From Mobula hypostoma (lineage: Eukaryota), in the NCBI RefSeq assembly GCF_963921235.1, contig NC_086097.1, positions 58,840,001-58,904,000 of the forward strand: a stretch of 64,000 nucleotides of DNA, in the 5' to 3' direction. How positions within the stretch are numbered: the first letter of the stretch is position 1; the number at the start of each line of letters is the position of its first letter. The translations under genes and the position numbers were made by a program. The notes under the pieces were generated by a model. It was not told the origin of the DNA. It saw nothing but the letters and a program-made list of their open reading frames with translations, and searched no databases. Below, piece by piece: positions 3,690 to 61,919 of the stretch.

Positions 3690-4370
3690 CAGCAATACAG
3701 AAAATAAGTTTAATTGGGGAACCGCTCTGTCATGTACCTTTCCTCTGTCCGCCGCAGAAGGCAGTATCTCCCGATGGAACCCATTTCAATTTGATTTCAC
3801 ATTCCTATTCAGACATGTCTAGCCATGACCCCTTGTACTGCCGCGATGAAGCCAAAGTCAGGTTGGAGGAGTAATTCCTCATATTTCCTCTGGGTATCCT
3901 CCAACCCAAAGGCATGATCATTGATTTGTCTAACTTCCGGTAATTTCTTCCCACTCCTTCCTTCTGTCTTTTTCCAGTCTCCATTCTAGTTACCCTCTCT
4001 CCCTTTTTCTTCTCCTCACAAGCCTATCACCTCCCTGTGGTTCCTCTCCTCCTTCCCTTTCTTCCATAGTCCACTGTCTGCTCCTATTAGAATCCTTCTT
4101 CTTCAGCCCTTCATATCTTCCACTTCTGACCTCACAGCTTATTATTTAATCACTCCACTCACACCTACCAACCTGTCACCGGCCAGCGTGTACTCCTTCC
4201 CTTCCCTCACTTTCTTATTCTGGCTCTTGCCCCCTTTTTTTCCAGCCCTAATGAAGGGTTTCAGAGTGAAATACTGATGAATAAATAGTGCCTGACTTGT
4301 TCAGTTCCTCCAGCATTTTGTGTCTATTGCTCAGGATTTCCAGTGTCTGCAGAATCTCTTGTGTTTGATC
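3690..4370 (+). mobile_element. Old Penelope-like element 3' fragment (GIY-YIG C-terminus and pseudo-LTR)
   Basis: Degenerate match to 38395-39020 (ttggggaaccgc..., tctaacttccggtaa, pyrimidine-rich UTR, ccagcattttgtgt...tctgcagaatctc). Decayed hammerhead ctaatgaagggtttcagagtgaaat near 4248. Confidence 0.7.
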
Positions 4371-4624: not shown

Positions 4625-6950
4625 TGACCATAAAACCATAAGATGGAAGAGCAGAAGTAGGCCATTCAGCCCATCGAGACTGCTCTGCCATTCAATCATG
4701 GGCTGATCCAATTCTTCCAGTCATCCCCACTCCCCTGCCTACTCCCCATACCCTTTGATACCCTGGCTAATCAAGAACCTATCTATCTCTGCCTTAAATG
4801 CACACAATGACGTGGCCTCCACAGCCACTCGTGGCAACAAATTCCACAGATTTATCACCCTCTGACTAAAGTAATTTCTCCTTATCTCTGTTCCAAATGG
4901 ATGCCCTTCAATCCTGAAGTCGTGCCTTTTTGTGTGGCACCTTGGAAAGGCCTTCTGAAAATCTAAGTACACCACGTCTACTGCATCTCCTTTGTCTACC
5001 CTGCTTGTAATTTCCTCAAAAAATTGCTGTAGGTTAGTCAGGCAGGATTTTCCTTTCAGGAAACTATGCTGACTTTGGCCTATCTTGTCATGTGCCTCCA
5101 GGTACTCTGTAATATCATCCTTCGCAATCAATTCCAACAACTTCCCAACTACTGATGTCAGGCCAACAGGTCTATAGTTTCCTTTCTGCTGCCTCCCACC
5201 CTTCTTAAATAGCGGAGTAACATTTGCAATTTTCCAGTTATCTGGTAAAATGTCAGAATCTATTGATTCTTGAAAGATCATTGTTAATATCTCTGCAATC
5301 TCTCCAGGAACTGCCTTCAGTACCCAAGGGTACATTCAATCAGGTCCCGGAGATTTATCCACCTTCAGACCATTAAGCTTCCTGAGCACCTTCTGAGTTG
5401 TAATTTTCACTGCACATACTTCACTTCCCTGACACTCTTGAACGTCTGGTATACTGTAGATGTTTTCCACTGTGAAGACTGATGTAAAATACGCATTCAG
5501 TTCCTCTGCCACCTCTGCATTTCACATTACAATATCTCCAGCATCATTCTGTATTGGGCCTATATCCACCCTCAACTCTCTTTTGCCCTTCATATACTTA
5601 AAAATGCTTTTAGTATTTTCCTTGATATTAGTCACCAGCTTCCTTTCAAAATTCATCTTTTCCTTCCTAATGACCTTCTTAGTTTCCTTCTGCAAGTTTT
5701 TAAAAGCTTCTCAATCCTCTATCTTCCACTAGCTTTGTCCTCCTTGTATACCCTCTCTTTTCCTTTTACTCTGGCTCTGACTTCACTTGTCAGCCACAGT
5801 AGTGTCCTTCTTCCATTTGAAAATTTCTTCTTATTTGGAATATATCTGTCTTGCTCTTCCCTCATTTTTTGCAGAAACTCCAGCCATTGCTGCTCTGCTG
5901 CCTTTCCCGCTAGTGTCCCTTTCCAGTGAACTTTGGCCAGTTCCCCTCTCCTGCCATTTGTAATTTCCTTTATTCCATTGAAATACCGACACATTGGAAT
6001 TCAGTTTCTCCTTCTCAAATTTCAAAGTGAACTCGATCATATTGTGATCACTGTTCCCTAAGGTTTTCCCAATCCACTTTCATGTTAAAATCCCCAATGA
6101 CTATCATGACATTGCCCTTCTGACACATCTTTTCTATCTCCTGCTGTAATTCATAATCCACAGCCTGGCCTGGAGGCCTGTATACAACTGCCATTAGGGT
6201 CCTTTTACCCTTGCCATTTCTTAACTCAACCCATAGAGAATCTACACCTTCCAATCCTATGTCATCTCTTTCTGATGATTTAATATTATTTCTTATACAC
6301 AGGGTCACAGCACTCCTTCTGCCTACTAACCTACCTTTCTGATACATCGTATATCCTTGGATGTTCAGCTTCCAATGGCAGCCATCCTTTAGCCAAGTTT
6401 CAGAGATGGCCATAATGTCATATTTGCCAATATGTAGCTGAATTTGAAGATTATCCATTTTATTTCTTATGCTGTGTGCATTCAAATACAACACTCTCAG
6501 TCCAGTATTTGTTGTTTTCTGTTTTAACTGCAACAAACTCCTATTGCTGTGTAACTCATCCCACTGGCTCTGATTATGCCTCATCTCCTGCTTGTCCTTT
6601 CTATCATCTCTGTTGCATGCCATCTTTGATTTATTTCTGTTTTCCCCTATCACTCCGGTGCCCATCCCCCTGCCAAATTAGTTTAAATCCTCCCTCACAA
6701 CTCTATTAAGGCAGCCTGCCAGGATATTGGACTCCTTTGGGTTCAGGTGTAAGCCCTCCTTTTTGTACAGGTCGTACCTCCCCCAGAAGAGGCCTCAATG
6801 ATCCAGGAATCTGAAGCCCTGCCCCCTACACCAATCTCTCAGCCACGCATTAGTATGCCTGATCATGCTATTCTTGTGCTTGCAATCCTGAGATTACTAC
6901 CCTGGAGGTCCTGCTTTTCAGCTTCCTTCTTAAGTCCCTGAATTCTCTCT
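4625..6950 (-). mobile_element. CR1 LINE, degenerate, with internal deletion of most of the RT (junction near 4935)
   Basis: EN motifs LYLNAHSIRNK, YDIMAISETWL, VVYRPP, GDFN. RT motifs [13 protein letters not shown] and VYLDFQKAF jump directly to the 3'-end motif FSQRVINLWNLLP. 3' tail near 4625. Confidence 0.9.
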
Positions 6951-10129: not shown

Positions 10130-13100
10130 CAAGGATAATTGGGACCTCTTCTGGGGCAGGTGGGACCTGTACAAGAGAGACGGGTTACACTTGAACCACA
10201 GGGGGACCAATATCCTTTCAGGGAGGTTTGTTAGTGCTGTTGGAGAGGCTTTAAACTAGATTTGCAGGGGGATGGGAACCAGAGTGCCAGAGCTGACAGT
10301 GTGGCTGGGGTGAAAATAAATGATGTTGAAAGTTTAAGCAAATCCTCTGATAGAAAGGTTGTGAGTGGTGGTAAAAATCTTCTGAGGTGTATATATTTCA
10401 ATGCTAGGAGTATTGCGGGGAAGGCGGATGAGTTGAGGGCGTGGATTGACACGTGGAATTATGATGTTGTAGCAATTAGTGAAACTTGGCTACAGGAGGG
10501 GCAGGACTGGCAGCTTAATAATCCAGGGTTCCGATGTTTCAGATGTGATCGAGGCAGAGGAATGAAAGGTGGGGGAGTAGCATTGCTTGTTAGGGAAAAT
10601 ATTACAGCAGTGCTCAGGCAGGACAGATTAGAGGGCTTGTCTACTGAGTCCTTATGGGTGGAGCTGAGAAACAGGAAAGGTATGACCACATTAGTGGGAT
10701 TGTATTACAGACCACCCAATAGTCAACGAGACTTGGAAGAGCAAATCTGCAGAGAGATAGCAGGCAACTGCAGGAAACATAATGTTGTGGTGGTAGGGGA
10801 TTTTAATTTTCCATACATTGATTGGGACTCCCATACTGTTAGGGGTCTAGATGGTTTAGAGTTTGTAAAATGTGTTCAGGAAAGTTTTCTAAATCAATAT
10901 ACAGAGGGACCAACTAGAGGGGATGCAATATTGGATCTCCTGTTAGGAAACGAATTAGGGCAAGTGACAGAAGTCTGTGTTGGGGAGCACTTTGGTTCCA
11001 GTGATCATAACACCATTAGTTTCAATTTGATCATGGACAAGGATAGATCTGGTCCTAGGGTTGAGGTTCTGAACTGGAAGAAGGCCAAATTTGAAGAAAT
11101 GAGAAAGAATCTAAAAAGCGTGGATTGGGACAGCTTGTTCTCTGGCAAAGATGTGATTGGTAGGTGGGAAGCCTTCAAAGGGGAAATTTTGAGAGTGCAG
11201 AGTTTGAATGTTCCTGTCAGGATTAAAGACAAGTTGAATAGGAATAAGGAACCTTGGTTCTCAAGGGATATTGCAACTCTGATAAAGAAGAAGAGGGAGT
11301 TGTATGAAATGTATAGGAAACAGGGGGTAAATCAGGTGCTTGAGGAGTATAAGAAGTGCAAGAAAATACTTAAGAAAGAAATCAGGAGGACTAAAAGAAG
11401 ACATGAGGTTGCCTTGGCAGTCAAAGTGAAGGATAATCCAAAAAGCTTTTACAAGTATATTAAGAGCAAAAGGATTGTAAGGGATAAAATTGGTCCTCTT
11501 GAAGATCAGAGTGGTCGGCTTTGTGCGGAACCAAAGGAAATGGGGGAGATCTTAAATAGGTTTTTTGCGTCTGTATTTACTAAGGAAGCTGGCATGAAAT
11601 CTATGAAATTGAGGGAATCAAGTAGTGAGACCATGGAAACTGTACAGATTGAAAAGGAGGAGGTGCTTGCTGTCTTGAGGAAAATTAAAGTGGATAAATC
11701 CCTGGGACCTGACAGAGTGTTCCCTCGGACCTTGAAGGAGACTAGTGTTGAAATTGCAGGGGCCCTGGCAGAAATATTTAAAATGTCGCTGTCTACGGGT
11801 GAAGTGCCGGAGGATTGGAGAGTGGCTCATGTTGTTCCGTTGTTTAAAAAAGGATCGAAAAGTAATCCGGGAAATTATAGGCCGGTGAGTTTAATGTCAG
11901 TAGTAGGTAAATTATTGGAGGGAGTACTAAGAGACAGAATCTACAAGCATTTGGATAGACAGGGGCTTATTAGGGAGAGTCAACATGGCTTTGTGCGTGG
12001 TAGGTCATGTTTGACCAATCTGTTGGAGTTTTTCGAGGAGGTTACCAGGAAAGTGGATGAAGGGAAGGCAGTGGATATTGTCTACATGGACTTCAGTAAG
12101 GCCCTTGACAAGGTCCCGCATGGGAGGTTAGTTAGGAAAATTCAGTCGCTGGGTATACATGGAGAGGTGGTAAATTGGATTAGACATTGGCTCGATGGAA
12201 GAAGCCAGGGAGTGGTGGCAGAGAATTGCTTCTCTGAGTGGAGGCCTGTGACTAGTGGTGTGCCACAGGGATCAGTGCTGGGTCCATTGTTATTTGTCAT
12301 CTATATCAATGATCTGGATGATAATGTGGTAAATTGGATCAGCAAGTTTGCTGATGATACAAGGATTGGAGGTGTAGTAGACAGTGAGGAAGGTTTTCAG
12401 AGCCTGCAGAGGGACTTGGACCAGCTGGAAAAATGGGCTGAAAAATGGCAGATGGAGTTTAATACTGACAAGTGTGAGGTATTGCACATTGGAAGGACAA
12501 ACCAAGGTAGAACATACAGGGTTAATGGTAAGGCACTGAGGAGTGCAGTGGAACAGAGGGATCTGGGAATACAGATACAAAATTCCCTAAAAGTGTCGTC
12601 ACAGGTAGATAGGGTCGTAAAGAGAGCTTTTGGTGCATTGGCCTTTATTAATCGAAGTATTGAGTATAAGAGCTGGAATGTTATGATGAGGTTGTATAAG
12701 GCATTGGTGAGGCCGAATCTGGAGTATTGTGTTCAGTTTTTGTCACCAAATTACAGGAAGGATATAAATAAGGTTGAAAGAGTGCAGAGAAGGTTTACAA
12801 GGATGTTGCTGGGACTTGAGAAACTCAGTTGCAGAGAAAGGTTGAATAGGTTAGGACTTTATTCCCTGGAGCGTAGAAGAATGAGGGGAGATTTGATAGA
12901 GGTATATAAAATTATGATGGGTATAGATAAAGTGAATGCAAGCAGGCTTTTTCCACTGAGGCAAGGGGAGAAAAAAACCAGAGGACATGGGTTAAGGGTG
13001 AGGGGGGAAAAGTTTAAAGGGAGCATTGGGGGGGCTTCTTCACACAGAGAGTGGTGGGAGTATGGAATGAGCTGCCAGACAAGGTGGTAAATGCGGGTTC

Positions 13101-23364: not shown

Positions 23365-24620
23365 TGTCATGTGGGGAGGGGATTGGTGGCAGACCCAAAT
23401 GCAAGGCATAGACACTGAAGCACTAGGAACAGGACTAAGTGTGACAAGGAAGCAAGGGAAGAGGGGAAGAAATGACACTGGAGATTGACACAGGCCCTGA
23501 ACAAGACAATGATACAAGGCCTGGGCTAGGACTTGACTAGGATAGCGGAACCAGGACATGGAACTTGGAACTAGGAGCCTGGGCTTGGACTCCGAGCCAG
23601 AGACTGGACAAGGACCCAGAACCAAGGACTTGACTCGGGATCAGACTCCAGAACTAGGCTCGGACAAGACGTGGCTACAGGATGAGGAGAGGCAACAGGA
23701 CTGGACGTGAGACTCCTGGATGGGAAAAGGGAACCCCAGCACCAGGCTGGGCAAGGTACTCCTGGGCTGGGCAAGACACATGGACAAGACGAGAACACAA
23801 AGCCATGGCTTGTTCAGGATAAGGTTCTAGGATTGTGGCTAGGACTGGACGAGACCCCGAAGCCTTGACTCGGTTCAGGGAGAGACAGGAATGCAGAGCC
23901 TTGGTCGAGGGAGAGACAGGAACATGGAACACAGAGCTGGGACCCCTCTTTGGAAACAGGACATAGGGCCAAGACTCATACATAGAACACAGAGCCGACA
24001 CCCCCCCTTGGGTACAGGACATAGGGCTGGGACTCATTACACAGAATGCAGAATACGACAAGATGGTTCCCAAAACAAGGCAGCAGCAGACGGCCAGACC
24101 TACCTAGCAAAGGCGTGGACACAGACAGTTCCCAACACTAGGTAGCAGCAAACAGCCAGACCTACCTAACAAAGGCGTGAACACAGACAGTTCCCAACAC
24201 TAGGTAGTGGCAAATGACCGGACCTACGTAGCGAAGGCGTGGACACAGAGACAGTTCAAAACAACAATAGACAGTTCCTTATCTTGCTCCGGCAATGGAG
24301 CTTGACAGCGGTACAGGCAAGGATTGCAGGCAAGGGTTACCGGCAAGGCAAGGCAAGGCAAGATTTCAGACAAGGCAAGGTGCGGCAAGGCTTCAGGCGA
24401 GGCGAGGCGAGGCTTCAGACAAGGCAACAGAAGGCAGGGGAAGGGATTCAGACAGGAACAATCCAGCAGCCAGAGGCTGAATCCTGAAGGTATTTATGAA
24501 GCCAGCCCAAACGAGAATCAGCTGCCTCAACAGAAACTGGGGAAAACCAGAAAACCTGGAATAAGGAACATGGACCAGACTGTGAACCAGAATGTGGATT
24601 TCACGGACCGGACCATAATA
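23365..24620 (-). mobile_element. Solo LTR (Gypsy-type, 1256 bp) with 5-bp TSD
   Basis: Ends tgtcatg...cataata (terminal CA apparently mutated to TA). gctag flanks both sides (23360-23364, 24621-24625). TATA-like cataaata on the minus strand near 24495. Confidence 0.75.
24082..24430. repeat. Three ~60-bp tandem units followed by a degenerate (ggcaa)n tract inside the solo LTR
   Basis: gacctac(c/g)ta...aaggcgtg(g/a)acacaga recurs at 60-bp spacing; ggcaa pentamers at ~24316-24430. Confidence 0.85.
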
Positions 24621-29274: not shown

Positions 29275-32240
29275 ACTGGTTTACTATTGTCATATGTATC
29301 AAGGTACAGTGAAAGGCTTGTCTTACATACTGATCATACAGGTCTATTCATTACACAGTGCACTAAGGTAGAACAAGTCAAAAATAACAAAGCAGAATAA
29401 AGTCTAACAGCCTCAGGAAAGTGCAGTGCAGGTGGACAATAAGGTGAAAGGTCATAGCAAGGTAGATTTTGAGGATAATAGCCCATGGTTTTGTATTAGA
29501 AACATAGACATAGAAACATAGAAAATAGGTGCAGGAGTAGGCCATTCGGCCCTTCGAGCCTGCACCGCCATTCAGTATGATCATGGCTGATCATCCAACT
29601 CAGAACGCTGTACCAGCCTTCCCTCCATACCCCCTGATCCCTTTAGCCACAAGGGCCATATCTAACTCCCTCTCAAATATAGCCAATGAACTGGCCTCAA
29701 CTGTTTCCTGTGGCAGAGAATTCCACAGATTCACCACTCTCTGTGTGAAGAAGTTTTTCCTCATCTTGGTCCTAAAAAGGTTCCCCTTTATCCTCAAACT
29801 GCGACCCCTCGTTCTGGACTTCCCCACCATCGGGAACAATCTTCCTGCATCTAGCCTGTCCAATCCCTTTAGGATTTCATACGTTTCAGTAAGATCCCCC
29901 CTCAATCTTCTAAATTCCAACGAGTATAAGCCTAGTCGATCCAGTCTTTCATCATATGAAAGTCCTGCCACCCCAGGAATCAATCTGGTGAACCTTCTTT
30001 GTACTCGCTCTATGGCAAGAATGTCTTTCCTCAGATTAGGGGACCAAAACTGCACACAATACTCCAGGTGTGGTCTCACCAAGGCCTTGTACAACTGCAG
30101 TAGTACCTCCCTGCTCCTGTACTCGAATTCTCTTGCTATGAATGCCAGCATACCATTCACCTTTTTCACCGCCTGCTGTATCTGCATGCCCACTTTCAAT
30201 GACTGGTGTATAATGACACCCAGGTCTCGTTGCACCTCCCCTTTTCCTAATCGGCCACCATTCAGATAATAATCTGTTTTCCTATTTTTGCCACCAAAGT
30301 GGATAACTTCACATTTATCCACATTAAATTGCATCTACCATGAATTTGCCCACTCACCCAACCTATCCAAGTCACCCTGCTTCCTCTTAGCATCCTCCTC
30401 ACAGCTAACACTGCCACCCAGCTTCGTGTCATCTGCAAACTTGGAGATGCTGCATTTAATTCCCTCATCCAAGTCATTAATATATATTGTAAACAACTGG
30501 GGTCCCAGCACTGAGCCTTGCGGTACCCCACTAGTCACTGCCTGCCATTCTGAAAAGGTCCCGTTTATTCCCACTCTTTGCTTCCTGTCTGCCAACCAAT
30601 TCTCTATCCACATCAATACCTTACCCCCAATACCGTGTGCTTTAAGTTTGCACACTAATCTCCTTTGTGGGACCTTGTCAAAAGCCTTTTGAAAATCCAA
30701 ATATACCACTGGTTCTCCCCTATCCACTCTACTAGCTACATCCTCAAAAAATTCTATGAGATTCGTCAGACATGATTTTCCTTTCACAAATCCATGCTGA
30801 CTTTGTCCGATCATTTCACTGCTTTCCAAATGTGCTGTTATCACATCTTTGATAACTGACTCCAGCAGTTTCCCCACCACCGATGTTAGGCTAACCAGTC
30901 TATAATTCCATGGTTTCTCTCTCCCTCCTTTTTTAAAAAGTGGGGTTACATTAACCACCCTCCAATCCTCAGGAACTAGTCTAGAATCTAAAGAGTTCTG
31001 AAAAATTATCACTAATGCATCCACTATTTCTTGGGCTACTTCCTTAAGCACTCTGGGATGCAGACCATCTGGCCCTGGGGATTTATCTGCCTTTAATCCC
31101 TTCAATTTACCTAACACCACTTCCCTACTAACAAGTATTTCCCTCAGTTCCTCCATCTCACTAGACCCTCTACTAGGGGACCATTCGATAGTCTTATAAA
31201 AGTGACATAGAATCTGTGCTTCTGTCTGGTGTTAGATGCTTTCAGGCTTCATGTTCAAAGGGAGAGGGGAGAAGACAGGATGTTCAGGTGGGTGGGATCT
31301 TTCATTACTTTACAGAAGCAGCAAGAATATAGAGTCCCTGGAGGGGAGGTTGGTTTCTGTGGTGTGCTGAGCTGTGTCCACAATTCTGTTGTGGTCATGG
31401 GCAGAACAGTTGCCATAGTAAGATGTAATGAATCCAGATAGGATGCTTTTTAAGGTGCATTGACAAAAAAATTGGTGGGAGTTAAAAGGGACATGCCAAA
31501 TTTCTTTAGCCTCATGAGAAAATAGAGGTACTGGTAAGCTTTCTTGGCTGTGACATCTCTGTCGTTGGAGCAAGGCAAGCTATTGGCATTGCTTACCCCT
31601 TGAAGCTTTCAACCTTTAACATAGACAGGAGCATCTGCACCGTCCCCTTCCCCGAAGTCAATGACATTTTCTTTTGTTTTGCTGACATTAAGAGAAAGGT
31701 TGTTGTCATGACACCATGTTACTAAGCTTGTTACTATCTCCTTCCTGTACTGCGATTCAAAGTTATTTGAAATACAAACCGCTTTATTATCATTTACAAA
31801 CCTGTAGATGGAGGTAGAGCAAAATCTGTCTATGCAGCCGTGAGCTACAGGGAGTAGCAGCTGTGGATACAGCATTGTCGACAGTCTATTGTTGAGAATA
31901 ACAGAGGCAGAGGTGTTGCTACCTATATTTACTGATTGTGGTCTGTTGGTCAAGAATTCAAGGGTCCAATAAATAGTGCCCATACCCAGTTGTTGGATGC
32001 AAAGGGAGGTGTTCAGTCCAGGAAGAGGAGTTTGAAGATGATCTTTCTTGGAATTACAGTATTGAAAGCAGAGCAGTAGTCAACAAACATTAGTCTAACA
32101 TAGGTGTTGACTGGCCATTTCTCCAGAGATGAGCTTAAGGCCAGGGAGATGGCATCCACTGTAGACCTGTTTTAGCAGTAGGTGAATTGCTGTGGGTGGT
32201 AGATATCTGGGAGGCTGAAGTTAATATATGCTACGACCAG
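29275..32240 (-). mobile_element. Rex1/Babar LINE fragment split by a CR1 insertion
   Basis: FLTNRPQSVNIG, WCHDNNLSLNVSKTKE, TLKSILSGFITSYYGNCSA; 3' UTR at 29275-29495 and 31170-31230. Confidence 0.8.
29497..31165 (-). mobile_element. Young CR1 LINE, 5'-truncated RT with one premature stop
   Basis: ORFs 30335-31156 and 29600-30334 are in the same frame, separated only by TAG; FADD present; (gaaacata)n tail on +. Near-identical to 58970-60295. Confidence 0.95.
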
Positions 32241-35310: not shown

Positions 35311-36420
35311 TTCAAAGATTTAAAGGTTCATTTATTATCAAAGTATGCAACTCTGTAAATTCTTCTTCTGCAGATTGCCATGAAACCAAGAAAGAAAGAA
35401 CAGCAGCACGATCATCAACCGCCAGATCCCCCCTCCCCGCTCAAAAAAAACAAACCGAACAGGCACATCAACCCCTAAATCCCTCTGCCTTGCACACAAA
35501 GAAAACCTGAGAAAAACACAGAATATAAAAACTATAAGACTGGAAAAAAAAAGTCCATAGCCCGAAACGCAGAAATGTTGTGTAACGTTCTCTGGGCAGA
35601 GCAATCACATCCGTGATCAAAGGGCAGTCTCCCCCTTTGACAACAGAGCAATCCCACCAGCGATCAAAAGGCAGTCTCCCCCTTCCATAACAGAGCAATC
35701 CCACCAGCGATCAAAAGGCAGTCTCCCCCTTCCATAACAGAGCAATCCCACCAGTGATCAAAAGGCAGTCTTGCTTCTCCAGCAGCAGAGCGATCCCACC
35801 AGTAATCAAAGGCAGTCTCCCCTCCCCACGGCAGATTGATCCCACCAGTGATCAAAATGCAGTCTTTCTTCTCCAGCAGCAGAGCGATTCCACCAGTAAT
35901 CAAAGACAGTCTCCCCTCTCCGACAGCAGATTGATCCCACCAGTGATCAAAATGCAGTCTTTCTTCTCCAGCAGCAGAGCGATCCCACCAGTAATCAAAG
36001 GCAGTCTCCCCTCTCCGACAGCAGAGCGATCCCCCGGTGATCAAGAGGCAGGCGGCTGGTGCTCACCTTCCACATTCGCCATGATGTTTCAATCTCCTTC
36101 ACCGTTTTAATCAGTAAATAATGGAAGCTTTAATCTACAGAATGGAGTCAAATGTTGTCTTGTGCCTCATGCCTCAGCCTTCTCTCCACAAGTTTTCCGC
36201 ACACTGCCTTTATCTCCCGGAATCCTCTCAGAGACTGTAGAGTGCTGAGACAAACAAACAATCTCCAAACTGCAAATCACAGGCTCCAACAGTTCCAGAA
36301 TCACATTCAAGGCAAAAAAAAGTGCAAAAAGATATAAAAGAAGTGAAATATATGGTTTCCTGGTCTATCCAGGAGATGATGTTGACCGTAGGAGTGTTGT
36401 ACGCAGGCATCATCTTGACA
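35311..36420 (-). mobile_element. Non-coding retroposon (family A-like termini) carrying a minisatellite
   Basis: On the minus strand it begins caagatgatgcc and ends gataataaatgaacctttaaatctttgaa, like families A/B and Rex1 tails. Confidence 0.65.
35597..36050. repeat. Minisatellite, ~9.6 units of 46-48 bp
   Basis: Unit cagagc(a/g)atcccaccagtgatcaaaaggcagtctcccc... starts at about 35597, 35644, 35691, 35738, 35786, 35832, 35880, 35927, 35975 and 36022. Confidence 0.92.
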
Positions 36421-37025
36421 GGAAGTTTTGTGTCATTGTAATTCATTGCAACCTGCTTCATTATTAACAAAATGCTTCTAGTTTAATACCATCAGTAACC
36501 TTGCTAATTGTGCTCCTTATATTCACATCCAAGTAATTTACATAAATAATGAATTACAGAGGTCCAAGCACTGATCCCTGGGCACCCCATTATTCACAGG
36601 CCTGCTGTGAGAGAATCATCCTTCAACTGCCACCCTCTGCTGCCTATCACTGAGCTAGCTCTGAATCCGTCTCACCAGCGCCCTTTCATCTGTCACACAT
36701 TACGAATAGTTCAGTAATTCTTAGTTAAAATTATACTGAATAAATAACTTGATCTTGACTTCTCACGTGCAAAGTTATGAGGTCTAATTTGCGACAAATA
36801 TAAAGCACCTGTTTCTTTTTGTGCAGACTACCAATATAATTTAACATATATGGCGAATAGTTAAACCTCCGAAGCTACATGCGATTGCTGAGCCTCTCCC
36901 AAGTAATCAAAGAAAGTAACTAAATAACAAACAACAGGAATTCTGCAGATGCTGGAAATTCAAGCAACATACATCAAAGTTGCTGGTGAATGCAGCAGGC
37001 CAAGCAGCATCTGTAGGAAGAGGTG

Positions 37026-37063
37026 CAGTCGACGTTTCAGGCCGAGACCCTTCGTCAGGACTA
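37026..37063 (-). ncRNA. Minimal hammerhead ribozyme in the inverted pLTR
   Basis: Reverse complement reads agtc-CTGACGA-agggtctcggcct-GAAACGTC-gact, with a 4-bp helix I. Confidence 0.8.
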
Positions 37064-37110
37064 ACTGAAGGAAGAGTGAGTAAGGGATTTGAAAGTTGGA
37101 GGGGGAGGGG

Positions 37111-38629
37111 GTTAGCTTGCTCCTGCCCCACCGAACTCGTTTCTGCATACCTCGACACTGTCTTATCACCCCTTGTTCAATCCCTTCCGACCTATGTTCG
37201 TGACACTTCTCACGCTCTTAAACTTTTCAATGATTTTAAGTTCCCTGGCCCCCACTGCTTTATTTTCACGATGGATGTCCAGTCCTTATATACTTCCATC
37301 CCCCACCAGGAAGGTCTCAAAGCTCTCCGCTTCTTTTTGGATTCCAGACCTAATCAGTTCCCCCCTACCATCACTCTGCTCCGTCTAGCGGAATTAGTCC
37401 TTACTCTTAATAATTTCTCCTTTGGCTCCTTCCACTTCCTCCAAACTAAAGGTGTAGCTATGGGCACCCGTATGGGTCCTAGCTATGCCTGCCTTTTTGT
37501 TGGCTTTGTGGAACAATCTATGTTCCGTGCCTATTCTGGTATCTGTCTCCCACTTTTCCTTCGCTACATCGACGACTGCATTGGCGCTGCTTCCTGCACG
37601 CATGCAGAACTCGTTGACTTTATTAACTTTGCCTCCAACTTTCACCCTGCCCTCAAGTTTACCTGGTCCATTTCCGACACCTCCCTCCCCTTTCTAGATC
37701 TTTCTGTCTCTGTCTCTGGAGACAGCTTATCCACTGATGTCTACCATAAGCCTACTGACTCTCACAGCTATCTGGACTATTCCTCTTCTCACCCTGTCTC
37801 TTGCAAAAATACCATCCCTTTCTCGCAATTCCTCCGTCTCCGCCGCATCTGCTCTCAGGATGAGGCTTTTCATTCTAGGACGAGGGAGAAGTCTTCCTTT
37901 TTAAAGAAAGGGGCTTCCCTTCCTCCACTATCAACTCTGCTCTTAAACGCATCTCCCCCATTTCACGTACGTCTGCTCTCACTCCATCCTCCCACCACCC
38001 CACTAGGAATAGGGTTCCCCTGGTCCTCACCTACCACCCCACCAGCCTCTGGGTCCAACATATTATTCTCCGTAACTTCTGCCACCTCCAATGGGATCCC
38101 ACCACTAAGCACATCTTTCCCTCCACCCACCTCTGCATTCCGCAGGGATCGCTCCCTACACAACTCCCTTGTCCATTCGTCCTCCCCATCCCTCCTCACT
38201 GATCTCCCTCCTGGCACTTATCCGTGTAAGTGGAACAAGTGCTACACATGCCCTTACACTTCCTCCCTTACCACCATTCAGGGCCCTAAACAGTCCTTCC
38301 AGGTGAGGCATCACTTCACCTGTGAGTCGACTGGGGTGATATACTGCGTCCGGTGCTCCCGATGTGGCCTTTTATATATTGGCGAGACCCGACGCAGACT
38401 GGGAGACCGCTTTGCTGAACATCTACGCTCTGTCCGCCAGAGAAAGCAGGATCTCCCAGTGGCCACACATTTTAATTCCACATCCCACTCCCATTCTGAC
38501 ATGTCTATCCACAGCCTCCTCTACTGTAAAGATGAAGCCACACTCAGCTTGGAAGAACAACACCTTATATTTCGTCTGGGTAGCCTCCAACCTGATGGCA
38601 TGAACATCGACTTCTCTAACTTCCGCTAA
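37111..38629 (+). CDS. PLE reverse transcriptase plus GIY-YIG endonuclease (N-truncated; inside ORF 36980-38629)
   Basis: FTMDVQSLYTSIP, QTKGVAMGTRMGPSYA, RYIDD, LPFLD, YHKPT; CCHH/GIY-YIG motifs CYTCPY, GVIYCVRCSRCGLLYIGETRRRLGDRFAEH, GMN. Confidence 0.92.
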
Positions 38630-39595: not shown

Positions 39596-40600
39596 AATAT
39601 AAATTTCAGTGGCTTGGCAGCAGAACTGGACATTTCCTGCTGTTTTGTCATTTTGATTCACTTTTTCTCTGACACCTTATACAAACAATGAAATATAATA
39701 TGGTCCTCTAATTGTCACTTTAAGTTAGTCTTACCCTAACAAAGCCATCTTTCCCCAACCTTCCCTGCTACTGAATTGGACTCATTTTTTCATTTGTCAG
39801 TTCTCCAACCTGTAATATTAACTGTGCCTCTTTTCATGATACTGACTGACATATACTACTAGTGGATGTAGAAGCGAGGAGGGAAACAGTAATAATTAAG
39901 ATGTGTGCAAAATGGCACCTGGCAACTCACTGCACATTGCTCTCTGCAGACCTACTCATTACTTCTATTGTCATCGTTCTGTTATTGTTTTCCCTTGAAC
40001 TATCTCAATGACTGTTGTAATGAAATGATTTGTAAGGATGGCAAGCAAAACAAAGCTTTTCACTGTACCGTGATACATGAGACAATAATAAGCCAATTTG
40101 CCAATTTATAAACACCCTAGAGCAACATAGGAAGAGCTAGAATTTCTTCTCTGACATGAAATTCCAACAGGGCAGAATTTCCAAAGTCTCTAGTGAGGTT
40201 CCTGGTGAGATTCTTAACAGGTGATCATGAGCAGAAAATGATTCCAGGTAATGAGTTTTCTGATGAAATTGAACATCCTTCTGCAGGCAAAAATCAAATA
40301 GTTGGTTTGTAATCCAGTAGACATTTTGAGAGAATGATCAGTGTTGTTGTCTTTTGTTCCTTTTAATCTACTGTCTCACTGGTGTTTCAAAGCTCTGGTG
40401 ATTAAAGTAAGTACTGTTTGTATCAGGAATCACAGAACTCATTAATTCAGGCAAGGCTTGGTGTCTGCTTCAACTGTAACTTATATCTTGTCTTCCATGT
40501 GGAAAGGTATTACCTAAATTGACAGCTTGATTTACTTTAATCAAATCTGCTCAGAAGTATAGGACTAAATTGACATTTCAGCCTTCAATATTAATGCATA

Positions 40601-40799
40601 TGTGGTGATATCACATGCAATGATGTGCCAGTATATGATTGGACAGCACTGAGCATGCGTGGGGTTTGCCAGAATGTTTCAGCACGTGGCGGGGTTAAGA
40701 CATGCTTGTTTATTACTGTAAATAAAAGTTCTCTAATTCTTCCAGAATATGATTCTTTACTGTTAACCCATGGTACGTTTAAACAGAAGTAATATAACA
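40601..40799 (+). repeat. 5' LTR
   Basis: tgtggtga...atataaca; 14 substitutions versus 42542-42740 by manual comparison; contains aataaa. Confidence 0.95.
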
Positions 40800-40812
40800 T
40801 GGTGTCAGTAGT
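40800..40812 (+). promoter_or_regulatory. Primer-binding site, tRNA-Leu-like
   Basis: tggtgtcagtagt immediately follows the 5' LTR. Confidence 0.75.
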
Positions 40813-40882
40813 ATTTCTGGAAGAATAATATGGGAGAATCGAGAATCAAAGATAATCGGAAAAAAAGAAGAAAAAGTTTCGA

Positions 40883-41700
40883 ATGGTAGTCAGTGAAATG
40901 GAAGGTTTACAACCCCCACCAAAACTTCAGCTGACTGGGAATGTAGCAGAGAACTGGAGGATCTTCAAGCAACAGTTTGAACTGTACTTATCGGTGATCG
41001 ATTATGAAGAGAAATCGGATAAAACCAAAGCTGAGCTTCTGCTCCATATAATTGGGAATGAAGTGGTAGAGATATATAATAATTTTGTCTTTGAAGATGG
41101 AGATAATTTCAATTTAAAGTCGATAATGGACTAATTGTATACCTAAGCGGAACTTAACGTATAAACCATATAAATTCTTCACATGAGCACAAAGGGCTGC
41201 TGAAACAATTGATCAGTATGTTACTGAGTTAAGAAAATGTAGTAGAACATGCGAGTTTGGATTGCTCACAGACTCTCTGATTAAAGATAGAATAGTTTGT
41301 GGCATTCGGAACAATGCTCTAAGAGAAAGGTTGTTGAAAGAGCAAGATTTAAATTTTGAAAAGCTTTCACGCTCTGCAAAGCTTCTGAGACAGTAAAGTT
41401 GCAGGCTGAAGAGCTTTTTGTTGAAAACTGCAATGTAAACGCTGTAAAAAAGTGCGAATATATCAAGAAATATAATAATACGTCGACAAAACCGACAAAG
41501 AGCAAGACGGCATTGGGGAAAAAAGTCATGTGATCACTGTGCCTGGGAACACCGTCCAAATCAGTGACAAGCTTTGCTACAGCTGCGGTAAGATTAATCA
41601 TTTTTCATGCTGTTGTTGAAGTAGAAAGAAGGAAAATGAAATGAAACAAGTAAATGCAGTGATTGAAGATGAACATGAGGAATTTTATATAGATGCACTT
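40883..41700 (+). pseudogene. Gypsy gag with two zinc knuckles, disrupted by stops and frameshifts
   Basis: LTGNVAENWRIFKQQFELYL; ETIDQYVTELRKCSRTCEFG...LIKDRIVCGI...LRERLLKE; CDHCAWEH..NQC and CYSCGKINHFSCCC at 41529-41616; linker KQVNAVIEDEHEEFYIDAL. Confidence 0.9.
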
Positions 41701-41709
41701 TATGAAAAC

Positions 41710-41906
41710 GCTGGCATGGAGAATATAAAAGCAGTAGCTTCAGTATCTGAGACGACCACAAAGGAGGCAATTGATGATGTGAAAAAGCATGGCAGGAAGA
41801 GGTTGCTTCAATTCAAGTGATAATGAGAGAGACACTGAGAGAATATGAGATTCAGTTTCATCACCGTCTAGAGCAAGAACACTCACAGTGGGCACAGTAT
41901 AAGCAA
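41710..41906 (+). pseudogene. RABEP1: Captured fragment resembling the Rabaptin-5 N-terminal coiled coil (one 1-nt frameshift near 41789)
   Basis: [64 protein letters not shown] versus recalled human AEMENIKAIATVSENTKQEAIDEVKRQWREEVASLQAVMKETVRDYEHQFHLRLEQERTQWAQYR. Confidence 0.88.
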
Positions 41907-42056
41907 GAAGTGAAAGCACAAGTGAAGGAATTGAGAAGTTGTATTGAAGTGATGAAGTCTCAGCATAAAAAAGAGATTACACAGTTAATGAAGGAATTAG
42001 ATGAAGAAAAGAAGATTTGCATTTCATTACAAATGGAAGCGGAAGGAATTAGGAAA
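41907..42056 (+). pseudogene. SH3KBP1: Captured fragment resembling the CIN85 C-terminal coiled coil
   Basis: [50 protein letters not shown] versus recalled human [50 protein letters not shown]. Confidence 0.85.
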
Positions 42057-42071
42057 GATACAATCCAAACA

Positions 42072-42254
42072 GAAGCAGGGAAGCAGATTTCTGAGGAGGA
42101 TAGCATGAACTGCTTACCAGAAATTCCAGATTCTAACCAGGAGACATGTGAGAGTATACCAAAATGTTTAGTTGAGATACATGAAGAAAAGCTTAAAGCA
42201 GGAAAGAAGAAGAAAAAGAAGCACAGGAAGAGTCATGGCTCAGATAGCGAAGAG
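42072..42254 (+). pseudogene. SLU7: Captured fragment resembling the SLU7 Lys-rich region
   Basis: EAGKQI...[33 protein letters not shown] versus recalled human EAGKEI...KPQTLMELHQEKLKEEKKK...KHRKSSSDSDDE. Confidence 0.75.
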
Positions 42255-42528
42255 CCAGCTTCTGAGTTTCAGTTAGCTGATACAGATTTGTTTATTGGTT
42301 AATGTTGTTATTTGTTTTCCTTTTTAAGGAAAAGAAGATGTGATTCTTCAGAGATTCAGTTAACGGATGCAGAAGAGACAAAACATGTAAATAATAACAA
42401 GGAAACACAAGATCTGTGTGTACCACTTAGAAGGACTACTTGTGTTCGTAAACCCACAGGGATACTTATAGAGACTTGTTAAATTATGTATTTGCTTTGA
42501 TTAATATTGTTATTTATTTTTTCTTTTT

Positions 42529-42541
42529 AAGGAAGGGAAGA
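42529..42541 (+). promoter_or_regulatory. Polypurine tract
   Basis: aaggaagggaaga follows a T-run and abuts the 3' LTR. Confidence 0.85.
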
Positions 42542-42740
42542 TGTGGTGATATCACGTGCAATGATGTGCCAGTACATGATTGGACAGCACTGAGCATGTG
42601 CGGGATTTGCCAGAATGTTTCAGCACGTGGTGGGATTAAGACATGTTTGTTTATTACTGTAAATAAAAGTTCACTAATTCTTCCAGAACATGATTCTCTA
42701 CTGCTAATCCATGGTACGTTTAAACAGAAGTAACATAACA
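42542..42740 (+). repeat. 3' LTR
   Basis: tgtggtga...acataaca, followed by TSD gcata. Confidence 0.95.
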
Positions 42741-44419
42741 GCATAAAAGCCTGATCAACAATGCAGGAATGGTAACAGAAATTTTACAGTAATTGTAAAT
42801 ATAAACATTTCTAAACCTGCTAAAATTGCAAGATGGTAAATCTAACTCTCACCGATGAATCAGGAGTCTTATCGAAATAGACAGATCGTATTCTGAGAAA
42901 CAGGTTAATTCTGTACATGAGTATTTCAAGCATTAAGTGCCTGTGTTAATTTTTCAGTTTATTTTTAGAGCATCACTAAGTGGAGCTGATCACTTCTTCT
43001 TCTATAAATTTGTGATGGTGAATGGTTCGGCTAACAATACATTTATGATATATTGTCTGCTGAAGTAAGTTCCTATTGGAATATTGGAGAGACAGGTTGG
43101 AGGTATTACTTATTTATTTGTGCCTATAATTCCAGAATCATTGCTGTTATCATGATCATTTGCCTGAATTCTTATTATGGCAGCAGTGATTCAGTGGACC
43201 AAAGAGGGAAAGTATTTGAGTATGGTCCAATGATTACATTTCTACACATTTTTTACACTGGCAAATTCAAACAGGTAATGGAGATTGGTCTAGTTCCTAT
43301 GGTTCATAGCTCAGTGGTTGTGGTGTTCCCCTCTAGGCAACATCCTGATTCAAGATCTATTGAAGAGATCCAGTCATTCCGTGCAATACTGGGAGATGTG
43401 AGCATTTTCAGAGATATTATCTGTCAATATGAATACAAAACTGAGGACCCATCTGTCTCAGGCAAATGAAAAAAATTCAAATGGAGAGTAAGAGCATCAA
43501 AAGCTGGTATCTGTTCAATAGTTATCCCTCTACCAAAATCACTTAAATAAATTATGTGGTAATAATCACATAGTTGCTAGGGCAACCTTTCTGCAGTCAG
43601 ACATCTCATCATATTTCCCACCTCAATACGTTGATTCTGTTCCAAGTGCTTATTTGGGTTTAAAGCATTCTGAGAGTTCCTTAGGATGTGAAAAGAGTGA
43701 TAAAAATTCAAAGATTTCCATTTTTGTAATAGTTTTACAGAAAGAAACATTTCTAAATTAAAATATCGCAAGAAAATTTTGGTCTAGTTTCCTTTAAGAT
43801 AAAAAATAATGTTGATAATGTTTAAAAAATGAGGTCACATAGTAATGAAGATCAAGACAAAAATGATTCCTGACCACCACAAAATTAGTTCCTATATTAT
43901 GGATTATTTATATTATATATAGAACAAAAATCTTTTAAATAGCCAGGAAATATGACAATAAGCAAAAAGATTTGAAAAGCATTCACATATCAATCCAAAA
44001 TGCTATCGAAAGCTCTGAATGAATGCCTGGAAATTTGGGATTTGGGTCCATAGATCTAATCTTCTTGTATAGGAATATCACTGTATTGTCCTTTACCATT
44101 AAAATTCAATTCATGCATTCATTGAACAAAATATAAAGGCAGAGAACAATATCCACCAGCTACCATCTAGAGATGTGCAGTATTTCTAAGCACAGCCAAG
44201 TTTATTATAGACACATGCCACGTGACGGTAAGGAACTGGATTGAATGATGTGTGAAAAGTTAGAAACTGCAGTAATTAGAAATTACTCTAAGTGGATGTC
44301 AGAGCTGAAGGCATCAGGTTTATTTCCCTGGAATTTACATTTTTCAATAGACATGGAATTTTGCTGTTCCATTTAATATTTTTCTTAGGGGTTTGGAGCC
44401 CACTTACTTGTACTGTTTG

Positions 44420-58969: not shown

Positions 58970-60295
58970 ATAGAAACATAGAAACATAGAAAATAGGTGC
59001 AGGAGTAGGCCATTCGGCCCTTCGAGCCTGCACCGCCATTTATTATGATCATGGCTGATCATTCAACTCAGAACCCCGCCCCAGCCTTCCCTCCATACCC
59101 CCTGACCCCTGTAGCCACAAGGGCCATATCTAACTCCCTCTTAAACATCGCCAATGAACTGGCCTCAACAGTTTGCTGTGGCAGAGAATTCCACAGATTC
59201 ACCACTCTCTGTGTGAAGAAGTTTTTCCTAATCTCGGTCCTAAAAGGCTTCCCCTCTATCCTCAAACTGTGACCCCTCGTTCTGGACTTCCCCAACATCG
59301 GGAACAATCTTCCTGCATCTAGCCTGTCCAATCCCTTTAGGATCTTATACGTTTCAATCAGATCCCCCCTCAATCTTCTAAATTCCAACGAGTACAAGCC
59401 CAGTTCATCCAGTGTTTCTTCATATGAAAGTCCTGCCATCCCAGGAATCAATCTAGTGAACCTTCTTTGTACTCCCTCTATGGCAAAGATGTCTTTCCTC
59501 AGATTAGGGGACCAAAACTGCACACAATACTCCAGGTGTGGTCTCACCAAGGCCTTGTACAACTGCAGTAGTACCTCCCTGCTCCTGTACTCGAATCCTT
59601 TCGCTATAAATGCCAGCATACCATTCGCCTTTTTCACCGCCTGCTGTACCTGCATGCCCACTTTCAATGACTGGTGTATAATGACACCAAGGTCTCGTTG
59701 CACCTCCCCTTTTCCTAATTGGCCACCATTCAGATAATAATCTGTTTTCCTATTTTTGCCACCAAAGTGGATAACTTCACATTTATCCACATTAAATTGC
59801 ATCTGCCATGAGTTTGCCCACTCACCCAACCTATCCAAGTCACCCTGCATCCTCTTAGCATCCTCCTCACTGCTAACACTGCCACCCAGCTTCGTGTCAT
59901 CCGCAAACTTGGAGATGCTGCATTTAATTCCCTCATCCAAGTCATTAATATATATTGTAAACAACTGGGGTCCCAGCACTGAGCCTTGCGGTACCCCACT
60001 AGTCACCGCCTGCCATTCTGAAAAGGTCCCCTTTATTCCCACTCTTTGCTTCCTGTCTGCTAACCAATTCTCCACCCTCACCAATACCTTACCCCCAATA
60101 CCGTGTGCTTTAAGTTTGCACACTAATCTCCTATGTGGGACCTTGTCAAAAGCCTTTTGAAAATCCAAATATACCACATCCACTGGTTCTCCCCTATCCA
60201 CTCTACTAGTTACATCCTCAAAAAATTCTATGAGATTCGTCAGACATGATTTTCCTTTCACAAATCCATGCTGACTTTGTCCGATCATTTCTCCG
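58970..60295 (-). mobile_element. Young CR1, 5'-truncated, uninterrupted RT C-half (ORF 59068-60309)
   Basis: 413-aa ORF with [24 protein letters not shown]; (gaaacata)n tail on +. Confidence 0.95.
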
Positions 60296-61919
60296 CTATG
60301 AAGCAACAAAGTACCACTAAGTGAGCAATAAAGGGAAGTTAGATTATGAAAATAAGATAGTACAAAATATAAAAATGGATTGTAAAAGTTCTTATAATTA
60401 TATAAAGCAGAAAATGGTGGTTAAAGTGAATGTAGGTTCCTTGGAGGATGAGAAGGGGGAATTGATATTGGGTAATGAGGAAATGGCCGAGGTTTGAATG
60501 ACTATTTTGTGTCTTTCTTCATGGTGGAGGACACATCTATCATGCCAAGAGTGATGTTATGGATGCGATGGGAGGTGAGGACCTCAATACAATAGCTATC
60601 ACTAAAGAGGTAGTGCTGAGCAAACTTGTGGGCCTGAAGATACATAATCCCCTGGTCCTGCTGGAATGCATCCCAGGATACTGAAAGAAATGACAGAAGT
60701 TATAGTAGAGGCTTTGGTGATAATTTACCTTAATTCTCTGGACTCTGGGCAGGTCCCAACAGATTAGGAGACAGCGAATGCCATGCCACTGTTCAGAAAA
60801 GGATGTAGGCAAAAAGCGGGGAACTACAGGACAGTTAGTTTAACATCTGTAGTTGGGAAAATGTTTGAAGCTGTCATTAAAGAAGAAATAGTGAGGCATC
60901 TGGAAAGAAATGGATCCATCAGGCAGACGCAGCATGAATTCAGCAAAGGCAGGTCTATTTGACAAACTTACTGGAGTTCTTTGAGGGTATAGCAAGAGCA
61001 GTGGATAGAGGGGAACAGATGGACATTATTTATTTGGATTTCCAGAAGGCACAGCATAAAAGACTTATCCATAAGATAAGGATGCATAGAGTTGGGGATG
61101 ACGTACTAGTATGGATAGAGGGTTGGTTAACTAATAGAAAGCAGAGTTGGGATACATGAATGTTACTCTGGTTGGCAATAAGTGGTGAGTGGTGTGTCGC
61201 AGGGGTCGGTGCTGGGCCTGCAACTGTTCACAATATACATTAACGATCTGGAAGAGGGGACCAAGTGTAGTGTATGCTAAGTTTGCTGATGACACTAAAC
61301 TGAGTGGGAAAGCAAATTGTGCAGAAGATACGGAGAATCTGCAGAGAGATATAGATGGGCTAAGTGAGTGGGCAATGGTCAGGAAAATGGAGTACCATGT
61401 TGGTAAATGCGAGGTCATCCACTTTGGAAGGAAAAAAGAAACAGATTATTATTTAAGTGGCAAAAAAATTGCGGCATACTTCTGTGCAGAGGGACTTGGA
61501 AGTGCTCGTGCATGAATCACAGAAGTTTGGTTTGCAGGTGCAGCAGGCTATCAAAAAGGCAAATGGAATGCTGGCCTTCCTTACTAGAGTTATTGAATTT
61601 AAGAGAAGGGAGGTTATGCTGCAACTGTACAGGGTACTGGTGAGGCTGCACCTGGAGAAATGCATGCAGTTTGGTCTCCTTACTTGAAGGAATTACTGGC
61701 TCTGGAGGCAGTGCAGAGGAGGTTCACCAGGTTGATTCCAGAGGTGAGGGGGTTAGACTAGGAGGAGAGATTGAGTCGCCTAGGACAGTTCTCACTGGAA
61801 TTCAGAAGAGTGGGAGGAGATCTTATGGAAACATATAAAATTATGAAAGGGATAGATAAGATAGAGACAGTAAAGTTGTTTCCGCTGGTAGGTGAGACTA
61901 GCTCTAGGGGACAAGATCC

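Follow-up and report, generated by a model that had tools for sequence, protein, structure and literature searches.

Replication-defective transducing retroviruses have lost pol, carry a spliced cellular sequence fused in frame to Gag, and depend on helpers for their propagation. As reported by Tan et al. (2016, Genome Res 26:1663, PMC5131818), in the part of that paper on which we draw, animal genomes contain intron-free retrocopies flanked by long terminal repeats (LTRs), with microsimilarity at the fusion points; some of these chimeras combine two or more genes and bear signs of secondary retroposition as non-autonomous elements. The same part describes maize Bs1, an LTR element that carries partial exons of three unlinked host genes, is present in 1-5 copies, and has one of its pieces out of frame (PMC5131818). 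Bs1 (Elrouby and Bureau 2001, 2010) is compared here by way of that account. Here we describe an element of the ray Mobula hypostoma in which pieces of three host genes, RABEP1, SH3KBP1 (CIN85) and SLU7, follow a retrotransposon Gag. It occupies positions 40601-42740 of a 64,000-nt stretch of contig NC_086097.1 (positions 58,840,001 to 58,904,000 of the forward strand; this whole stretch is the window, and its numbering is used throughout). The element is most probably a decayed copy of a non-autonomous Ty3/Gypsy family of ~90 members, which arose by stepwise template jumps and depended on helpers for its movement.

The window copy is a complete 2.14-kb LTR element, and all of its features lie on the + strand. 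The 5' LTR (40601-40799) and 3' LTR (42542-42740) form a direct repeat with 93% identity over 200 nt, both have the form TG...CA, and the same LTR was present in 21 other full-length copies. The target-site duplication GCATA was read directly on the left (40596-40600) and, as the same five bases 3' of the 3' LTR, on the right (42741-42745). A putative primer-binding site (PBS; 40800-40820) starts with TGG and lies directly 3' of the 5' LTR. A PBS-like TGG... adjoins the 5' LTR in 18 of 22 copies, and in other copies the site reads TGGTGTCAG[A/G]AGTGG, a presumed match to a leucine tRNA 3' terminus. A scan of the 64-kb window detected no tRNA gene. The polypurine tract (PPT), AAGGAAGGGAAGA at 42529-42541, abuts the 3' LTR; most of the 22 copies retain it, several of them with a single substitution, and it is partly deleted in L010 and L023 (copies and related loci are denoted by L numbers).

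The interior begins with a Gag remnant (40883-41709), delimited by tblastn and the open reading frame (ORF) map, which comprises a capsid-like part, two zinc knuckles at ~41529-41616 and a linker to ..YEN. The cargo follows in the sense orientation: a RABEP1 piece corresponding to ~aa 88-153 of the ray protein (41706-41912) and a piece of the SH3KBP1 C-terminal coiled coil, ~aa 617-665 (41905-42057). Next comes an integrase C-end leftover (..TVQTE..; 42058-42075), which, by comparison with the sister elements L037-L040 (type A, see below) and L047, has a 33-nt in-frame deletion. The SLU7 piece (42072-42253) consists of three spliced host exons and stops in the middle of the third. A shortened integrase C-end (..EP.SEFQLAD..; 42254-42302), placed by alignment with the integrase C-end of sister elements, then leads into the family stop codon at 42300-42302. 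Repeat comparison showed that 42303-42342 is an internal copy of the 3' untranslated end, the PPT and the first four LTR bases (TGTG). Positions 42343-42541 hold a second, fuller integrase C-end remnant (stop at 42480-42482) with the 3' untranslated end and PPT, 81-86% identical to type A elements and to the autonomous relative L045. The 3' end, PPT included, is present twice in this element: a shortened copy with PPT and four LTR bases, and a fuller copy downstream of it. The internal copy was found in 21 of the 22 copies, and the ATGTG bases were absent from L022.

The Gag pieces were 53-66% identical to aa 1-275 of polyprotein P0218 by tblastn, and Gag was 50-56% identical to the ~1,290-aa polyproteins P0218-P0222, whose Pfam domains are protease, RVT_1, RT_RNaseH, Integrase_H2C2 and rve. 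No Gag family was matched by Pfam in the broken gag pieces of the window. Neither Pfam nor tblastn against P0218 found reverse transcriptase (RT), RNase H or integrase domains in the element; the tblastn match ended at aa 275, save for the C-terminal integrase leftover. The element is classed as non-autonomous because it has no RT, RNase H or integrase of its own. The initial annotation had described a complete mini LTR element, mobile as a unit with its cargo, and the LTRs, the GCATA duplication and the separate duplications of the other copies agree with this. Its statement that pol was replaced is too sweeping, since integrase C-end leftovers flank SLU7, with five residues before it and more after.

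We searched a genome of 3.48 Gb in 200 contigs and, among 40 candidates scored, recovered 21 further full-length copies with 84-89% identity. Target duplications of 5 bp, judged by eye in the 22 copies including that of the window, were perfect in 11, had one mismatch in seven, and were not recognisable in four. Family size was estimated from junction words, counted with ≤3 mismatches and with reversed patterns as controls. The word across the joint between the integrase leftover and SLU7 occurred 86 times (control 0), and that across the Gag|RABEP1 joint 95 times (control 0), which puts the family at ~90 members. The first-look candidate figures of 1,385, 1,055 and 7,414 are not copy numbers; the junction counts for this and the sister families were 59-157. 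The cargo is therefore not single-copy, and the genome-wide search proposed in the initial annotation revealed ~90 propagated copies. Kimura two-parameter distances between paired LTRs had a median of 0.083 (range 0.047-0.158), and the median copy-to-copy distance was 0.128. The window family is an old one, and all 22 copies examined are dead.

Two further loci of this family were observed. In L016 (G000:C59:59226001-59231178), a PBS and further element sequence immediately adjoin the 3' LTR, so that one LTR is shared by two elements, arranged in tandem or recombined. At G000:C9:116954299-116954323, the Gag|RABEP1 joint word has two private differences in common with the window copy, suggesting either a very near relative or duplication of the segment.

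The identity of the cargo was established at several levels. Pfam recognised Rabaptin in two adjacent frames, with E 9.9e-10 at 41620-41820 and E 1.6e-18 at 41778-42302. The coiled-coil structures of SH3KBP1/CIN85, 5abs_A and 2n64_A, matched at E 2e-12, and the PDB search also gave a weak match to residues 458-515 of human SLU7 (E 0.008). The closest database relatives were RABEP1 and SH3KBP1 of rays (Mobula, Hypanus, Hemitrygon, Pristis). A decayed natural copy was 76% identical to ray RABEP1, its best database match, and 70-88% identical to ray SH3KBP1 over the matched parts; the joint sequences additionally delimit the SH3KBP1 piece. A HMMER search of 1.84 billion proteins returned 141 matches, whose best stretches all lay outside the SLU7 part, and SLU7 was not listed by a word-based protein database search.

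The SLU7 identity is proved by the exons of the host itself. The host gene was located at G000:C21 via Pfam Slu7. The first of the three exons concerned (L043:~4194-4214) ends with ..EAGKQIV, followed by gtaagt. The second (L043:7227-7310) lies between ag and gcaagt and is 87% identical to 42093-42176; the third (L044:2987-3066) is 90% identical to 42174-42253 and extends past the point where the element departs from it. The introns of ~3.0 and ~5.7 kb are absent from the element. Mapped on the host exons, as the initial annotation had suggested, the SLU7 fragment crosses two splice junctions with the introns missing, and it is consequently of RNA origin. In addition, a 2,098-nt contig from an RNA-like run covers exactly 42072-42253 with host SLU7 sequence on both sides, and a 4,810-nt contig, also from an RNA-like run, covers exactly 41706-41912 with host RABEP1 on both sides. 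The absence of introns from the RABEP1 and SH3KBP1 pieces is supported indirectly by colinear mRNA-like contigs; there was no contiguous host match. Taken with the Pfam and PDB matches, the host exons confirm the original assignment of the cargo to RABEP1, SH3KBP1 and SLU7, all in sense.

Searches with ray RABEP1 and SH3KBP1 found many intron-free, longer pieces of both genes. We fetched twelve of these sister loci, partly chosen for long open frames, and all twelve were related LTR elements. In type A (L037-L042), Gag, protease (PR) and the first part of RT (RT') are followed by SH3KBP1 aa ~525/540-667 and the last ~80-95 integrase residues (INT'); L037 reads this layout in one natural 563-aa frame. 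The longer SH3KBP1 pieces (aa ~525-667) thus belong to a separate sister family. Type R (L031) has Gag-PR-RT', RABEP1 aa 61-172 and the integrase end. In type B (L032-L034, L036), Gag-PR is followed by RABEP1 from aa 54/61, with SH3KBP1 aa 617-660 inserted after ..QYKE; RABEP1 resumes past SH3KBP1 (..MEVE|RELTDLR..). L035 retains the protease together with the RABEP1-SH3KBP1-SLU7 cargo. Another locus, L047, has the protease-less Gag|RABEP1 joint of the window and runs from SH3KBP1 into an undeleted integrase end, without SLU7. Two type B elements contain extra DNA: L036 (G000:C12:105425800-105435700) is 3.2 kb long and L032 (G000:C62:15895900-15905800) 3.9 kb, and the extra sequence, in the gag-protease gap of L036 and downstream of the cargo in L032, was apparently inserted later.

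The joints were compared against the sister elements and the host exons, and each showed microhomology of 2-7 nt (GT at the 33-nt deletion, 4-7 nt elsewhere). The Gag|RABEP1 joint is a ~450-nt deletion between two AAAT words, by which the protease and RABEP1 aa 61-87 were lost. It is not a capture joint, because L035, L032-L034 and L036 keep the protease and RABEP1 from aa 54/61. At the RABEP1|SH3KBP1 joint the pieces overlap in the microhomology GAAG.AGTG, and at the SH3KBP1|integrase-end joint in AGAAAGC. The 33-nt in-frame deletion in the integrase end of the window family lies at the GT, and SLU7 replaces the integrase-end stretch between GAAG and AAGA.

These comparisons change the order of events. 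The initial annotation had read the passage of Gag into RABEP1 as the capture itself; the sister elements that keep the protease show this joint to be a secondary in-frame deletion. Nor were there three consecutive direct captures: SH3KBP1 was inserted inside RABEP1, as seen in L036 and the stingray protein P0078, and SLU7 inside the integrase leftover. What stands is the capture of mRNA by template switching, for which the microhomology at the joints and the spliced SLU7 piece argue.

Comparison of the sequences shows that the element arose step by step during reverse transcription. The RT jumped at microhomologies of 4-7 nt between co-packaged RNAs, the templates being host mRNAs and related elements, and in-frame internal deletions came afterwards. 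Surviving sister families fit the earlier steps: Gag-PR-RT'-RABEP1-INT', Gag-PR-RT'-SH3KBP1-INT', Gag-PR-RABEP1 with SH3KBP1 inserted, the inserted form without protease, and forms with and without SLU7.

The joints of the sister families are also repeated in the genome. The type A joint SH3KBP1|INT' occurred 157 times and the type B joint SH3KBP1|RABEP1 59 times, with one occurrence for each control. The Gag|RABEP1 deletion joint adjoins three different 3' halves, that with SLU7 (the window), that of type A (L047) and that of type B (G000:C5:11783055-11783414). Since one and the same deletion joint is combined with three 3' halves, the elements have exchanged halves, for which template switching between co-packaged RNAs is the ordinary explanation.

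In the window copy, gag (40883-41619) is split into at least five frame pieces by stops and frame changes, and 41620-42302 has a single frame change, near 41789. One base is missing near 41788/41789 in the RABEP1 piece; the host and other contigs have one base more. The initial annotation, which reported one 1-nt loss near 41789 in a frame otherwise open to 42302, was right from 41620 onwards, and left the break-up of gag further upstream unmentioned. A single frame from gag through several host-gene pieces was found in natural copies and not in the window copy. In L022, L025, L002 and L012, frames of 319, 289, 265 and 260 aa, respectively, are open from the zinc knuckles across every piece of the cargo as far as the stop at 42300-42302 of the window; in L008, a 362-aa frame opens 5' of the gag start and reaches into the RABEP1 piece. 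We also inspected twelve residues on each side in five joint windows of the 22 copies. The windows were contiguous in one frame in 22, 19, 22, 22 and 18 copies, the failures being due to private indels or weak matches. The continuity of the frame from Gag through the cargo, which the initial annotation had proposed, is therefore found in nature in L022, L025, L002 and L012, which are open across all the joints.

The active ancestors encoded one protein. As none of the 22 copies is open throughout, this ancestral single ORF was pieced together from overlapping natural frames. The deduced protein consists of Gag with two zinc knuckles, a putative RABEP1-SH3KBP1 helix of ~120 residues and a lysine-rich SLU7 piece, with short integrase C-end leftovers between and after the cargo pieces. 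An AlphaFold2 model of the single L025 sequence contained one unbroken helix at residues 97-216, which passes the RABEP1|SH3KBP1 joint at a pLDDT of 90-98, and left the SLU7 part mostly disordered but for one short helix. A crude heptad count gave the same a/d phase on both sides of that joint.

Lacking RT, RNase H and integrase, the element must use the enzymes of autonomous relatives. We propose that it was copied and inserted by enzymes of such elements, which are abundant in the genome. One of them, L045, has the order gag-PR-RT-RH-INT (RH, RNase H; INT, integrase) and aligns to P0218 in the order gag, PR, RT, INT. Over the 5' 1.5-1.7 kb of type A, L045 was 84-86% identical to L038, L039, L041 and L042 and 83.8% identical to L037; with L040 the identity was 75% over gag and 88% over PR. 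The integrase end of L045 was 90-94% identical to those of all six type A elements. RT of the L045 kind gave 33,732 first-look candidates in the genome.

In the genome annotations of two stingray species, type A and type B frames are entered as proteins (XP_072880776, 'RABEP1-like'; XP_059819315; XP_072897951). The entries P0078, P0079 and P0086, from two stingray species, are element frames titled 'rab GTPase-binding effector protein 1-like' or 'uncharacterized protein'. These stingray entries are likely mis-annotated retrotransposon ORFs, and element copies annotated as 'RABEP1-like' or 'uncharacterized' inflate gene-family counts. An annotated protein with the SLU7-bearing fusion was not found (four database matches, none with SLU7). 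We also observed P0010, a 703-aa electric ray entry ('RABEP1 isoform X9'), a RABEP1 model with a C-terminal Pfam RVT_1. The model seems to pass from a RABEP1 exon into a retroelement; it is unrelated to the family of the window.

Parts of the element were present in sequencing runs of several organism labels, and no RNA dataset was listed as containing the window element. Joint-bridging contigs came from four small runs, whose RNA status is only guessed, and which attest the presence of the sequence rather than transcription. The contig of X17 record 21 bridges a joint (41609-41933), those of X18 records 30 and 31 cover 41878-42044 and 42022-42155, and that of X15 record 6 covers 42069-42332.

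Selection for an open frame was assessed from the phase of the joints. Of all microhomologies of 4-7 nt that the partner sequences have in common, a share of 0.20-0.56 would join them in phase. The window family has six joints, all six of them in frame; at ~0.4 per joint, the chance of this outcome is ~0.004. The six in-frame joints suggest selection for an unbroken frame. More in-frame joints and deletions were found in the sister elements L037/L042, L038, L039/L041, L040, L031 and L036. On balance, we lean slightly towards the reading that multiplication was confined to lineages in which the frame remained open from gag almost to the 3' end. Such a requirement could arise if the element depended on Gag of its own, produced from an RNA that was stable and translated throughout. 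The host pieces would then be passengers, chosen by purine-rich microhomology and not for their cellular function.

Substitution patterns were compared among the segments. Among the 22 copies, gag had a pN/pS of 0.42, RABEP1 0.83, SH3KBP1 0.42 (over 50 codons) and SLU7 0.79. Most of the variation among segments is due to CpG decay, by which synonymous change is inflated. Compared with the host exons, the SLU7 piece had pS 0.199 and pN 0.082. After subtraction of half the within-family distance, the values were pS 0.146 and pN 0.040, a ratio of 0.27 over a path that includes the constrained host branch. Pairwise dN/dS in type A was 0.33-0.50 for gag-PR (dS 0.18-0.42) and ~1 for the cargo (dS 0.03-0.12). 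Outside CpG, type A elements differed by 0.07-0.18 in gag and by 0.025-0.064 in the cargo. At least for L040, this fits a type A cargo whose common origin is more recent than that of the backbones. For the 22 copies of the window family we rejected a cargo much younger than gag, since outside CpG the segments differed little (0.070-0.094), apart from the 5' third of gag (0.125).

Several points weigh against the reconstruction as a whole. A spliced origin was shown directly for SLU7 only. The host RABEP1 exon encoding aa 16-58 (G000:C71:53178480-53178508, minus strand, with the following exons at lower coordinates) ends just upstream of the captured span; being outside it, this exon does not settle the splicing of the RABEP1 cargo. 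Host SH3KBP1 exons were not found, as the genome search with the whole protein gave only intron-free element copies. The whole frame was intact in none of the 22 copies, the longest frames being 362 and 319 aa. The gag of L045 is only 72% identical to that of the window, which is distant for the exact helper of the window's LTR subfamily. The choice of sister loci partly for long frames makes them a biased sample, leaving the six joints of the window family as the only unbiased ones. Finally, we infer the RNA-level selection for an open frame from these joints.

Among the rival explanations, the one that survives best takes the chimeric protein as an adaptation. Host coiled coils would add to the self-association of Gag and so help particle entry or the packaging of the element's own RNA. 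We consider this possible, if rather unlikely. It would explain the multiplication of cargo-bearing forms and the passage of cargo between backbones, and it is consistent with the six in-frame joints and with the predicted unbroken helix, whose heptad phase is kept across the RABEP1|SH3KBP1 joint. Moreover, the SH3KBP1 coiled coil was taken up in two contexts, as aa ~525-667 and as aa 617-660 inside RABEP1, and the cargo is the least diverged type A segment. However, constraint on the cargo was not demonstrated by the pN/pS values of RABEP1, SLU7 and the 50 codons of SH3KBP1; the SLU7-versus-host ratio includes the constrained branch of the host; and CpG decay accounts for much of the segment difference. 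Low cargo divergence is also expected from a recent shared origin and a low CpG content, and purine-rich, Glu/Lys-coding RNA is rich in microhomologies, which could alone favour coiled-coil pieces. The selection for a translated chimeric protein that the initial annotation had proposed is only partly supported: an unbroken frame looks selected, and constraint on the cargo residues themselves was not demonstrated.

An extension of the adaptive reading, to which we give somewhat less credence still, is that one ray Gypsy lineage repeatedly recruits host coiled-coil or charged segments as working C-terminal Gag modules, traded between backbones. If this were true, modules traded by recombination would help helper-dependent elements to compete for helper particles. 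The result would be a modular 'parasite of a parasite' system made of host protein parts, with the triple fusion as one of its products.

It is improbable, though not to be neglected, that the host pieces are neutral and the in-frame joints mere luck, in which case any gag-containing deletion derivative with intact ends would multiply. Non-autonomous LTR elements without any ORF are common, which accords with this explanation, and in-phase microhomologies exceed one in three for some pairs of partners, reaching 0.56. One of the three host pieces of maize Bs1 is out of frame, according to the account excerpted from PMC5131818. Against luck stand the six of six in-frame joints of the window family, expected by chance in ~0.4% of cases, and the further in-frame joints and deletions of the sister families, whose loci were partly picked for long frames.

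A domesticated host gene, that is, a Gag-RABEP1-SH3KBP1-SLU7 fusion kept for a cellular or antiviral role, is very improbable. Related frames are annotated as proteins in two stingrays, for instance as 'RABEP1-like', and contigs of the element type occur in runs that look like RNA. These observations are outweighed by ~90 dispersed copies with LTRs and target duplications of their own, by the absence of an intact frame in all 22 copies, and by within-family pN/pS close to 1 in most of the cargo; nor did any one conserved locus emerge. The idea that the copies stem from misassembly, or from duplication of a single chimeric locus as DNA, found no evidence in its favour and can practically be set aside, since the copies lie on many contigs with differing flanks and 5-bp duplications, and the joints recur in contigs from runs of several organism labels.

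The remainder of the window is dense in non-LTR retroelement remains. A 951-aa open LINE ORF2 lies at 10235-13090 (+), with Pfam matches to Exo_endo_phos (E 4.6e-19) and RVT_1 (E 1.5e-34); its endonuclease domain is of the apurinic type. A 569-aa open frame at 36920-38629 (+) gave weak matches to RT (E 2.7e-5) and to a GIY-YIG nuclease (E 3.5e-4), a pairing typical of Penelope-like elements. RT/endonuclease fragments were found on the - strand at 59068-60420, 30335-31231, 4739-5335 and 6048-6677. There are also two tandem arrays, one at 35596-36051 with 47/94-bp units (9.7 or 4.8 copies) and one at 24066-24249 with three copies of a 62-bp unit.

The mechanism and the kind of element are already described; the window family itself is new and well documented. 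The literature searched, the coverage of which was incomplete, yielded no account of this family or of similar ray elements. The ray elements make it testable how template jumps of RT build multi-gene frames, a form of exon shuffling, and whether an unbroken frame or the coiled coil is needed for helper-dependent multiplication.

Transducing retroviruses offer a looser parallel, resembling the ray element in the loss of pol, the in-frame fusion to Gag and the dependence on helpers. They carry one growth-altering gene, selected in somatic infection, whereas the ray element carries short structural segments (a coiled coil and a lysine-rich tail) in a germline retrotransposon that lacks env and is not known to affect the cell. 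The LTR-mediated retrocopies, as far as the excerpted account of PMC5131818 goes, share with the ray elements intron-free host mRNA pieces in sense orientation, element sequence on both sides and microsimilarity at the fusion points. In that account the retrocopies are young and present in one to few copies, whereas the ray families have ~60-160 copies and LTR divergence of 5-16%. Unlike those retrocopies, the ray element kept gag and read it in frame through three host pieces, and the ray families display a stepwise pedigree and swapping of halves. The ray element has a cartilaginous fish as its host, and the abstract of that paper does not list it among its species. Bs1, as described there, is likewise an LTR retrotransposon with pieces of three host genes (PMC5131818). 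It is a plant element of 1-5 copies with one piece out of frame, whereas the ray family is a vertebrate one with ~90 copies and all pieces in frame. Known captures of host mRNA by LTR elements are mostly single young insertions or the low-copy Bs1; here, a vertebrate genome preserves forms that fit a chain of steps, from capture through insertion of a second piece into the first, loss of the protease and a third capture to duplication of the 3' end, with the preserved stages each in tens to ~160 copies.

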